Shown in pieces: positions 40,997 through 43,140 of a stretch of DNA of 64,000 nucleotides. Positions within the stretch are counted from its first letter, which is position 1. Each line of letters opens with the position of its first letter. Made by a program: the position numbers and the translations under genes. The notes below the pieces were generated by a model. That model was not told the DNA's origin and did no database searches. It worked only from the letters and a program-made list of their open reading frames with translations. Source of the stretch: an uncultured Erysipelotrichaceae bacterium (GTDB lineage Bacteria > Bacillota_I > Bacilli_A > RF39 > UBA660); assembly GCA_902789425.1 (NCBI GenBank), contig CADANX010000002.1, positions 96,316-160,315 of the forward strand. The letters run 5' to 3'.

Positions 40997-42808
40997 AAAG
41001 TGGAACAAGTGTATTTGATATAGTAAAAGTATCAAATAACCTTGGTCTTAAATCTTCTGCATATAAATGTGATTTTAAAAACTTACTAAAGTTAAAACTT
41101 CCCATAACAATTCATTTAAAAGTTAATAAAGTATATCCACATTTTGTAATTCTATATAAGATTAAAAATAATAAATTATATATTTTTGATCCTGTAAGAG
41201 GTTATTTAAAATATTCTAAAGAAAAGTTTTTAGAAGAATGGTCTAATATTGTTATTACTTTTGAAAAAACAAATCACATATATAAAGAAGAAAAGAAAAA
41301 TATTCTTTTAAAAAATATAAAGATTAATAAAAAAAGTTCTATTTTAATAATAATTCTTTCTACTATTGTTTCACTCATCTCTATAATAAAACTTATTGTT
41401 CTTAGTAAAATTTTAAATAATTATAATATAAATAACTTGTCATATTTTATTTTTTTATCACTTTTAGAAATAGTATTTAATCACTTGAGAAATAAAATGA
41501 CCATATCTTTTAATAAAGAACTTGATAATAATTTAATGTGTTATATTTTAAAACATATTTTTAATCTTCCACTTAATTATCATCATACTAGACCTGTAGG
41601 TGATATTGTATCTAGAATTTATGATTTGTATTCAATTAAGGATTTTATAAATCAATTACTTTATTTTTATCTATTTATTATTAAATAATTTAAAAGTATT
41701 TTTATTATTTTTAATTATTTCAATTATATTTTTCTTAATATATTATTTATTTAGAGATAGATTAAATGAGTGCATATTTAAAACTAAAGAAAGTCAATCT
41801 GAATCAAATTCAGGAATAATAGAAAAACTTCTCGGTATTGATACTATTAAATATAATGGACTTGAATCTTTATTTTTAAATAAACAAATTAAAAAGTATA
41901 ATTCATATTTAATTGAAGATGAGAAATTAAAAAAATCATACATAATATATAACACTTCTTCATGCGTCATTAAAACTTTGGGCTATATGTTTTTATTTTT
42001 AAGTATTAATTTAAATATTTCTCAAATTATACTTTTTTATTCATTTTTAAATCAATTATATATAATATATGAAAAAATAATTGAAATAGATAATCTAATA
42101 ATTAATTCAAAAACTTCTTATAACAGAATTAATGATTTGTTGGATGCAAAAGAAGAATTTAAAAGTAATAAATACAGTAATGTATATTTAAATGATATTA
42201 TTTTTAAAAATCTCCCATATAAAACTAATAATTTTAATTTAAATATAAGACCTAATGATTATATTTTTATAACTGGTGAAAGTGGAATTGGTAAATCAAC
42301 TATTTTTAAAACATTAGTTAAGGAATATAAAACAAATAATATTTTTTTTAATAATGTACCTATTAGTAAATACTCTTCGTCAGTTATCAGAAATAAAATT
42401 ACATATGTTTCGCAAAATGAATTTATATTTACAGACACAATAAAGAATAATATATTACTAGGTAGAAAAATAGATAAAAACAACTTAAATAAAGCGTTAA
42501 AAGTATCTATGGTTAATGATATTCTTAAAAATAAGAATATAGATTTAGATTATATGCTTGAAGAAGATGGTCATAATATATCAAGCGGTGAAAGACAAAA
42601 AATATTACTTGCAAGATCTCTAGTGAATGATACAAGTTTAATTATCTTTGATGAAACTATGAATGAAATTGATGTAAAAAGTGAAAGAAAAATAATAAAA
42701 AATATTAAAACTGAATACAATAAATCAATTATATTAATTTCTCATAGATTAGATAACAAAGACTTATTTAATAAATTTATAGAAGTAAAAGGAGAAGAAA
42801 ATGAATAA
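40916..42808 (+). pseudogene. C39-peptidase-domain ABC exporter (bacteriocin/double-glycine peptide exporter type), frameshifted
   Basis: The N-terminus has the QHGLKDCGASCL catalytic-Cys motif and the frame stops at 41023. Frame 2 continues SGTSVFDIVK...YPHFVILYKI...FDPVRG (C39 His region) and TM segments up to 41688. Frame 3 is open from about 41670 to 42808 and carries Walker A GESGIGKST, the signature ISSGERQK and Walker B LIIFDE. Confidence 0.85.
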
Positions 42809-42941
42809 ACTAAATCAAAAACAAATGAAGAATATAAAGGGTGAAGGTATAAGTGTAGGTGCTGTTGCAATGATAGGCGGTGTAATTGCATTTATAGTTG
42901 GAGTATTTGATGGTTACACTAGACCTTATAGATGTAGATAG
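42801..42941 (+). CDS. double-glycine-leader peptide 1 (class II bacteriocin-like, 46 aa)
   Basis: MNKLNQKQMKNIKGEG-ISVGAVAMIGGVIAFIVGVFDGYTRPYRCR: a leader with L at -12, M at -7, I at -4 and G at -2, then a Gly-rich hydrophobic core with GxxxG. The ATG overlaps the exporter stop codon. The ORF is absent from the supplied track because it is too short. Confidence 0.6.
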   Translation: MNKLNQKQMKNIKGEGISVGAVAMIGGVIAFIVGVFDGYTRPYRCR

Positions 42942-42950
42942 GAGGTAAAT

Positions 42951-43115
42951 ATGAAAAAATTAAATAAAGAAGAAATGATACTTATAAATGGTTCTGGATT
43001 AACTGGACAATTAATAAATGCTGTTAGAAACGGTATTTTATCTATAGTTGATATTGGTAGATACTTTGGTTCTTCAATTAGAAGAATTGTAGAGGGTAAT
43101 CTATGTAAATATTAA
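42951..43115 (+). CDS. double-glycine-leader peptide 2 (class II bacteriocin-like, 54 aa)
   Basis: MKKLNKEEMILINGS-GLTGQLINAVRNGILSIVDIGRYFGSSIRRIVEGNLCKY. The leader fits the L(-12) E(-8) M(-7) I(-4) G(-2) S(-1) consensus. GGAGG SD at 42941-42945. Confidence 0.65.
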   Translation: MKKLNKEEMILINGSGLTGQLINAVRNGILSIVDIGRYFGSSIRRIVEGNLCKY

Positions 43116-43140
43116 AAAGCATTCACATTGAGTGCTTTTT
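43116..43140 (+). terminator. Rho-independent terminator after peptide genes
   Basis: agcattc / gagtgct stem (one G-U pair), 5-nt loop, T5. Confidence 0.6.

Follow-up and report, generated by a model that had tools for sequence, protein, structure and literature searches.

Class IIb bacteriocins such as lactococcin G, plantaricin EF/JK, ABP-118/salivaricin and lactacin F are encoded by adjacent pairs of genes with double-glycine (GG) leaders. They are served by a dedicated ATP-binding cassette (ABC) exporter with a C39 peptidase domain (a peptidase-containing ABC transporter [PCAT]), and they mature to cationic, helical peptides of 30 to 40 amino acids with GxxxG-type motifs. The same leader type, with cleavage and export by a PCAT, is found in the streptococcal systems ComC/ComAB and BlpC/BlpAB. 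A gene for a GG-leader cargo, CtA, also adjoins that for PCAT1 of Acetivibrio (Clostridium) thermocellum (PMC8794836). Here we describe a locus that shares these traits, located in a 64,000-nucleotide stretch (the window) from an uncultured Erysipelotrichaceae bacterium (GenBank assembly GCA_902789425.1, contig CADANX010000002.1, positions 96,316 to 160,315 of the forward strand). In this window, two short genes, pepA and pepB, follow a PCAT gene. The exporter gene, pepA and pepB form a three-gene operon with two cargo genes, and by analogy with the described systems we consider it probable (about 0.7) that the exported pair is a class IIb-like two-peptide bacteriocin. The features of the operon are these:

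40916 to 42808, + strand: exporter gene, encoding a C39-peptidase ABC exporter (PCAT), with Pfam domains Peptidase_C39, ABC_membrane and ABC_tran across three pieces
42790 to 42794, + strand: Shine-Dalgarno sequence of pepA (AGGAG), read from the sequence, 6 nt before the ATG
42801 to 42941, + strand: pepA, encoding a 46-aa precursor with leader residues 1 to 15 (42801-42845) and a predicted mature peptide of 31 aa (42846-42938)
42940 to 42945, + strand: Shine-Dalgarno sequence of pepB (AGGAGG), 5 nt before the start and overlapping the pepA stop codon
42951 to 43115, + strand: pepB, encoding a 54-aa precursor with leader residues 1 to 15 (42951-42995) and a predicted mature peptide of 39 aa (42996-43112)
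43109 to 43147, + strand: hairpin followed by a T-run, the probable intrinsic terminator of the operon

An earlier, sequence-only reading of this DNA had proposed two unannotated open reading frames (ORFs) directly behind the exporter, with a terminator after them. An ORF check on the window sequence found both genes on the + strand at the coordinates listed above, with precursor sequences MNKLNQKQMKNIKGEGISVGAVAMIGGVIAFIVGVFDGYTRPYRCR for pepA (42801-42941) and MKKLNKEEMILINGSGLTGQLINAVRNGILSIVDIGRYFGSSIRRIVEGNLCKY for pepB (42951-43115), and the Shine-Dalgarno sites were likewise present. The ATG of pepA lies within the final codons of the exporter gene (..GAA AAT GAA TAA), an overlap of 8 nt, and a gap of 9 nt separates the pepA stop codon from pepB on the same strand. 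A single hairpin follows pepB. Folding gave it -13.4 kcal/mol with a z score of -4.59, and none of 200 shuffled sequences folded as well, in agreement with the proposed terminator, although a simple consensus terminator scan did not call it. A promoter scan was uninformative in this 24% GC DNA, returning 34 sites against 35.3 expected.

The host genome comprises 1.03 Mb in 22 contigs with 22 to 26% GC. When its six frames were scanned with the leader pattern, only pepA, pepB and one unrelated match were found. For comparison we examined 47 loci, namely, the window and 46 distinct fetched loci (designated by L-numbers); 40 loci were drawn from 38 genera. In 47 of 47, pepA was immediately upstream of pepB, and a PCAT gene was upstream on the same strand. 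Since the leader pattern is nearly unique in the genome and the conserved homologs always occur as an adjacent pair, we regard pepA and pepB as real genes and not as a chance pattern.

Homologs were found in several sequence collections. In a set of 5.8 billion proteins, 15 homologs of pepB shared the invariant pattern D-x-G-R-Y-F-G-S..R-R..N-x-C, and a pepA homolog at 57% identity had the same mature C-terminus. The trio was present in two metagenome-assembled genomes of uncultured Bacilli from rabbit and human gut, with intact exporters of 681 and 671 aa, and the same arrangement occurred on further metagenome contigs. A pepB profile searched against 1.84 billion representative proteins matched 267 clusters (50% identity) at E values up to 0.001, nearly all of them 50 to 75 aa long and matched over their full length.

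Both precursors start with M(N/K)KLN..(Q/E)M..I(K/N)G(E/S)G. The leader carries L at -12, M at -7, I at -4 and G at -2, as the sequence-only reading had described for a double-glycine leader, while position -1 is occupied by E in pepA and S in pepB. The family alignment yielded the leader consensus M..L...EL..I.GG, in which GG aligns with G14-E15 of pepA and G14-S15 of pepB; this puts the predicted cleavage site after residue 15 (GE|G and GS|G). From the alignment we infer this site to within plus or minus one residue. The leader is conserved in homologs, most of which bear the canonical GG. In the clade of the window (window positions 42843-42848 and 42993-42998), GG is replaced by GE, GS, GN, AG, AS or AN. 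The Glu at -1 of pepA had been remarked on as unusual. It is indeed atypical, though it recurs in a second, distinct sequence, L004, and is therefore not a private mutation.

Cleavage after residue 15 would release peptides of 31 and 39 aa, close to the lengths of about 30 and 39 aa first estimated. Predicted mature pepA is Gly-rich, with a net charge of about +2 and a transmembrane-like helix followed by the basic tail YTRPYRCR. Predicted mature pepB has a net charge of about +3 and forms an amphipathic, cationic helix built around the core G-R-x-x-G-[ST]-x-I-R-R, with one Cys near the C terminus. These properties match the chemistry first described for the two peptides (hydrophobic and Gly-rich for pepA, amphipathic and cationic for pepB). 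AlphaFold models of each peptide as a single chain showed a helical leader, an interruption around GG and then a single long helix, with moderate confidence (pLDDT 64 to 67). The GxxxG-type motifs that had been pointed out, GVFDG in pepA and GRYFG in pepB, are present, and in these models both fall within the predicted helices.

The glycines of these motifs are conserved across the family. The alignment gave the consensus leader | G(I/F)S... I.A.I.F.IG.IDGY.RP.KC. for pepA and leader |.ISGTLINA...GI....D.GR..G(S/T).IRR......C.. for pepB. In pepA, F, G, P and C are invariant in 47 of 47 sequences, D-G is present in nearly all, and G34-x-x-D-G38 as a whole is kept in nearly all. In pepB, G21 and G25 of G-R-x-x-G are invariant, as is C37, and R22, R29 and R30 occur in at least 90% of sequences. 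Each peptide thus has exactly one invariant Cys near its C terminus. A disulfide between these two Cys residues of pepA and pepB is possible but speculative; the genome has no DsbB- or DsbA/BdbD-type genes. Between species, dN/dS of the mature parts was roughly 0.1 to 0.5, with dS near saturation, and the leaders evolve faster. Judged by these ratios, the mature parts of both peptides are under purifying selection.

The class IIb-like, two-peptide reading proposed from the sequence gained support from the paired genes, the leaders, the exporter and the motifs, and also from pepA relatives that match a described family. TIGR03949 is the NCBIfam model for class IIb bacteriocins of the lactobin A/cerein 7B family, with a curated cutoff of 21.5 bits. 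The pepA sequence of locus L043, a distant relative, scored 26.4 bits, and three of the eight closest pepA relatives also matched the model. The window pepA itself gave no match to TIGR03949 at E values up to 10. Literature searches found no description of the pepA/pepB peptide family. Together, the comparisons support treating pepA and pepB as a sequence family that is new but belongs to a known kind of system, the PCAT-exported two-peptide class II bacteriocins.

What is established for PCATs and class IIb bacteriocins suggests a mechanism for the pair. The exporter's C39 domain would bind the 15-residue amphipathic leader helix through its hydrophobic residues at -12, -7 and -4 and the small residue at -2, and would cleave after the -2/-1 pair while the ABC part translocates the peptide. 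This would release a 31-aa Gly-rich transmembrane-type helix (pepA) and a 39-aa amphipathic cationic helix (pepB). The two peptides may then associate through their small-residue motifs (G-x-x-D-G and G-R-x-x-G), which would present G-x-x-x-G faces, and may act jointly on a target membrane and permeabilize it. We infer export, the cleavage site, pairing and any killing activity of pepA and pepB from the analogy with these described systems.

The likeness to PCAT1 and CtA is one of gene layout, a PCAT next to the gene for a GG-leader cargo (PMC8794836), and CtA differs in being a single, much longer cargo.

The likeness to ComC and BlpC raises the question of whether the peptides are quorum-sensing pheromones, since a double-glycine leader and a PCAT are what ComC/ComAB and BlpC/BlpAB combine. 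Unlike those systems, the window has no linked two-component system, and no histidine kinase or response regulator was found beside the cassette in any of the 47 loci. The cargo is also longer and hydrophobic, with mature peptides of 31 and 39 aa, of which one is a transmembrane-like helix, and the two are always paired. Pheromones usually diversify into pherotypes, but the mature sequences here are conserved in over 120 genera. We consider a pheromone function very improbable.

The exporter had been called broken. In the window assembly it does read in three frames (40916-41023, 40999-41688 and 41651-42808), but the break is most likely an artefact. The exporter is intact in conspecific loci L070 and L071, where it is 657 aa long and contains C39, ABC_membrane and ABC_tran domains. 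Its best NCBIfam match is to TIGR01193 (peptide cleavage/export ABC transporter), over the full length at 290 bits, below the cutoff of 523.85. The assembly used for comparison was Scaffold_25 of sample ERZ28613037, fetched as L070 and L085. Over 4,719 plus 17,676 aligned positions, L070 and L085 showed zero substitutions relative to the window, and four gaps in the window were the only difference. These gaps, and the second, partial copy of the exporter gene (the remnant) to which three of them are related, are as follows:

23572: gap 1, 46 nt absent, in giant gene 1, whose ORF is intact (4401 aa) in L085
25766: gap 2, 178 nt absent, in the exporter remnant
40996 to 40997, + strand: lesion 1 of the exporter gene, 46 nt absent relative to L070/L085, at the exact end of a 99-nt repeat shared with the remnant
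41659 to 41660, + strand: lesion 2 of the exporter gene, 35 nt absent relative to L070, inside a second repeat block shared with the remnant
25668 to 25925, + strand: exporter remnant, in which the Shine-Dalgarno sequence and codons 1 to 27 are joined to a piece of the transmembrane domain

The repeats found at the exporter lesions derive from the remnant, which is present in L085 in a form 178 nt longer. The first 99 nt of the remnant are an exact repeat (25668-25766 is identical to 40898-40996). Of the four gaps, the one in the remnant and the two in the exporter border on or fall within repeat blocks common to the two copies, and the gap at 23572 marks the boundary where similarity to strain L006 falls from 98% to 85%. 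Contigs of two further assemblies (L086 and L087) end within the 99-nt repeat. The 46 nt missing from the exporter encode residues that are conserved in the C39 domains of other species and are therefore genuine sequence.

Two observations concern the surroundings of the remnant and the exporters of other loci. The remnant lies between two tandem, diverged modules (window positions 14996-25616 and 25943-40827; about 66 to 71% nucleotide identity). In each, a gene for a giant surface protein (more than 4300 aa) precedes one for a single-transmembrane (TM) protein of about 590 aa, an arrangement also present in L085. Split exporter ORFs occur in L010 (2981-4995), L043, L069 and L075 (1394-3384), and these may reflect decay or errors of assembly or sequencing.

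The cassette is interrupted in a different way in conspecific strains from three samples, where an element is inserted inside pepA between codons 38 and 39 (at about 42913 in window coordinates). It carries genes for a large serine recombinase (CcrB/XisF-like, 557 aa), ParB, a SpaA-type pilin and a sortase. The left junction, between the exporter gene and the truncated pepA, is seen in L005 to L008 (locus positions 6001-6260), and the right junction, in which the recombinase gene is followed by GYTRPYRCR* and pepB, is seen in L072, L073 and L076 (e.g., L072 2299-4000). Given the position of the insertion, the 3' end of pepA is an attachment site, and excision of the element could restore pepA. 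Since these strains tolerate disruption of pepA, the cassette is dispensable at the strain level.

These data bear on whether the exporter is a true pseudogene in this strain, with peptide genes that were orphaned recently, are nonfunctional and are too young to have decayed. In its favor, the 46-nt and 35-nt gaps shift 220 codons in the middle of the gene out of frame, no further C39 domain is encoded in the genome and the cassette has been disrupted independently in the conspecific strains just described. Against this stand the zero substitutions over 22.4 kb (22,395 aligned bases) relative to an assembly with an intact exporter, and the placement of all four gaps at expected branches of an assembly graph (three repeat blocks and one boundary between variable and conserved sequence). 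In addition, 178 nt of the remnant and 46 nt of the giant gene are missing from the same assembly, and the contigs of other assemblies break exactly at the repeat. We therefore regard a true pseudogene as unlikely. The two frame-breaking gaps are probably assembly errors, the exporter is most likely intact in the organism, and the apparent pseudogenes for both giant gene 1 and the exporter are probably assembly artefacts. Whether or not they are artefacts, other strains of the species carry a fully intact operon. Two other explanations for the broken frame were rejected. An alternative genetic code was ruled out because the frame shifts arise from the missing 46 and 35 nt and there are no in-frame stops, and a second C39 exporter acting in trans was ruled out because tblastn found the peptidase part only at the locus and in the remnant.

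The sequence-only reading had also stated that no immunity-like ORF, modification enzyme or two-component system adjoins the peptide genes, and in the window none was found; no gene lies between pepB and the next downstream gene. The 202-aa and 433-aa proteins encoded downstream were considered as immunity factors and rejected. They have no family matches, and they are unlinked to the cassette outside the species, as L016 and L030 run from pepB directly to recD2.

In many distant genera the cassette includes two further genes, which we call c3 and pepI. The c3 gene lies between the exporter gene and pepA in 25 of 40 loci, as detected with a hidden Markov model (HMM). Its product, about 140 aa long, has a TM helix at the N terminus and a beta-rich domain. 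The pepI gene, of 45 to 60 codons, is found in 18 of 40 distant loci, where it overlaps the end of pepB. The pepI product has a basic N terminus and a single TM helix, its C-terminal half is homologous to that of pepB (L-G-x-Y-x-G-T-x-I-R...C), and it lacks a GG leader. Examples are the following:

L043, 6402 to 6842: c3, between the exporter gene and pepA
L068, 6387 to 6845: c3, likewise placed, as in 23 further loci
L033, 6837 to 7004, - strand: pepI
L041, 6843 to 7013, - strand: pepI
L068, 6828 to 7010, - strand: pepI
L066, 7153 to 7320, + strand: pepI, which occurs in 14 further loci

From this homology, it is plausible that pepI encodes a membrane-tethered, nonexported mimic of pepB, a candidate immunity factor or docking partner. 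The c3 and pepI genes of distant relatives may supply accessory or immunity functions that are missing in the window. The exporter and c3 also have counterparts in Mollicutes. The conspecific exporter matches NF045998 (Mbov_0121 family peptidase-domain ABC transporter) end to end at 236.8 bits, and c3 aligns weakly, again end to end, with the neighboring model NF045999 (MAG1140 family). Both matches are below the curated cutoffs (500 and 35 bits, respectively), and the clade of the window has no c3 counterpart of NF045999. That clade has lost c3, and it has lost pepI except for a short form in one genus. In the same clade, GG is changed to G[SNE] or A[GSN], GRS of pepB to GRY, and RPL of pepA to RP[FY]. 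Because these changes amount to one clade-level event, they are weak evidence for coevolution of pepA and pepB.

To define the distribution of the cassette, two pepB profiles were used. The first gave a match in 276 of 301 genomes of the order and 121 of its 127 genera, almost all in one family. The second, built from only the mature part of 45 diverse sequences, matched 49 of 50 genomes of the window's family and 1 of 350 genomes of other Bacilli. That single match (G305:C9:28114-28230) is in a 0.9-Mb genome from a different family of the class. Genomes with the cassette are 0.7 to 1.6 Mb in size, and the lineage is uncultured and has been sampled from ruminant, rabbit and human material. In most genera the cassette occupies the same chromosomal place, upstream of rpsU-yqeY and often downstream of rsmD. 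Since the profile finds 49 of 50 genomes in the family and 1 of 350 elsewhere in Bacilli, the cassette is, on these matches, a lineage-specific, near-core and vertically inherited trait and not a sporadic accessory bacteriocin.

Several of these results weigh against a two-peptide bacteriocin. Bacteriocin loci are usually patchy, whereas this cassette is present in about 92 to 98% of the family's genomes and almost nowhere else. The pepA and pepB genes of the window match no Pfam or NCBIfam bacteriocin model, and pepB has no relative of known function, with no match in Pfam, NCBIfam or PDB sequences. A producer of a membrane-active toxin normally needs an immunity gene. None was found in or near the operon in the window, and a homolog search found neither pepI nor c3 anywhere in the genome. 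We know of no C39 cleavage context with Glu at -1, as in pepA, and with real gaps in the exporter the genome would offer no alternative C39 domain to process the two peptides. The family thus departs from described class IIb systems in a pepB without a detectable relative in described families, in the lack of an immunity gene in the window operon, in the one invariant Cys in the C-terminal region of each peptide and in a distribution that is near-universal yet restricted to a lineage.

Because of this distribution, we retain the alternative that the exported pair is not antagonistic. It would instead be a lineage-defining core system whose peptides serve a physiological function, whether in the envelope or membrane, as a self-signal or as an obligate tool of the reduced-genome lifestyle. 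Consistent with such a role are the counts obtained with both profiles, the conserved chromosomal place, retention in reduced genomes, mature sequences that are strongly conserved and not diversified, and the lack of an immunity gene in the window's clade. Conspecific strains tolerate the element in pepA, however, and split exporters are scattered among the loci. The peptide chemistry, the PCAT context and the TIGR03949 matches are traits of class IIb bacteriocins, and the cassette has no linked gene for a receptor or regulator. On balance, we find a physiological role doubtful.

A related and equally tentative view is that the locus is a core secretion module made up of the PCAT, c3 and two coevolving one-Cys peptides, with pepI docking or neutralizing them on the producer, and that the module has been remodeled in the window's clade. 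The pair may then be an obligate lifestyle tool, whether for lysing neighbors to obtain nutrients or as an envelope or signal component.

Our preferred reading remains the class IIb-like two-peptide bacteriocin. A practical warning also follows, in that what look like pseudogenes in the window probably arose through misassembly at repeats. Should the peptides prove active, they would represent a new sequence family of two-peptide bacteriocins, of about 267 clusters, from a widespread uncultured gut lineage. The family is unusual in its near-core distribution, in the one invariant Cys per peptide and in the membrane-tethered paralog that is the likely immunity factor in many genera. This combination would offer a tractable test of producer immunity by mimicry, and also a test of why a 1-Mb genome retains a 2.5-kb antagonism cassette.

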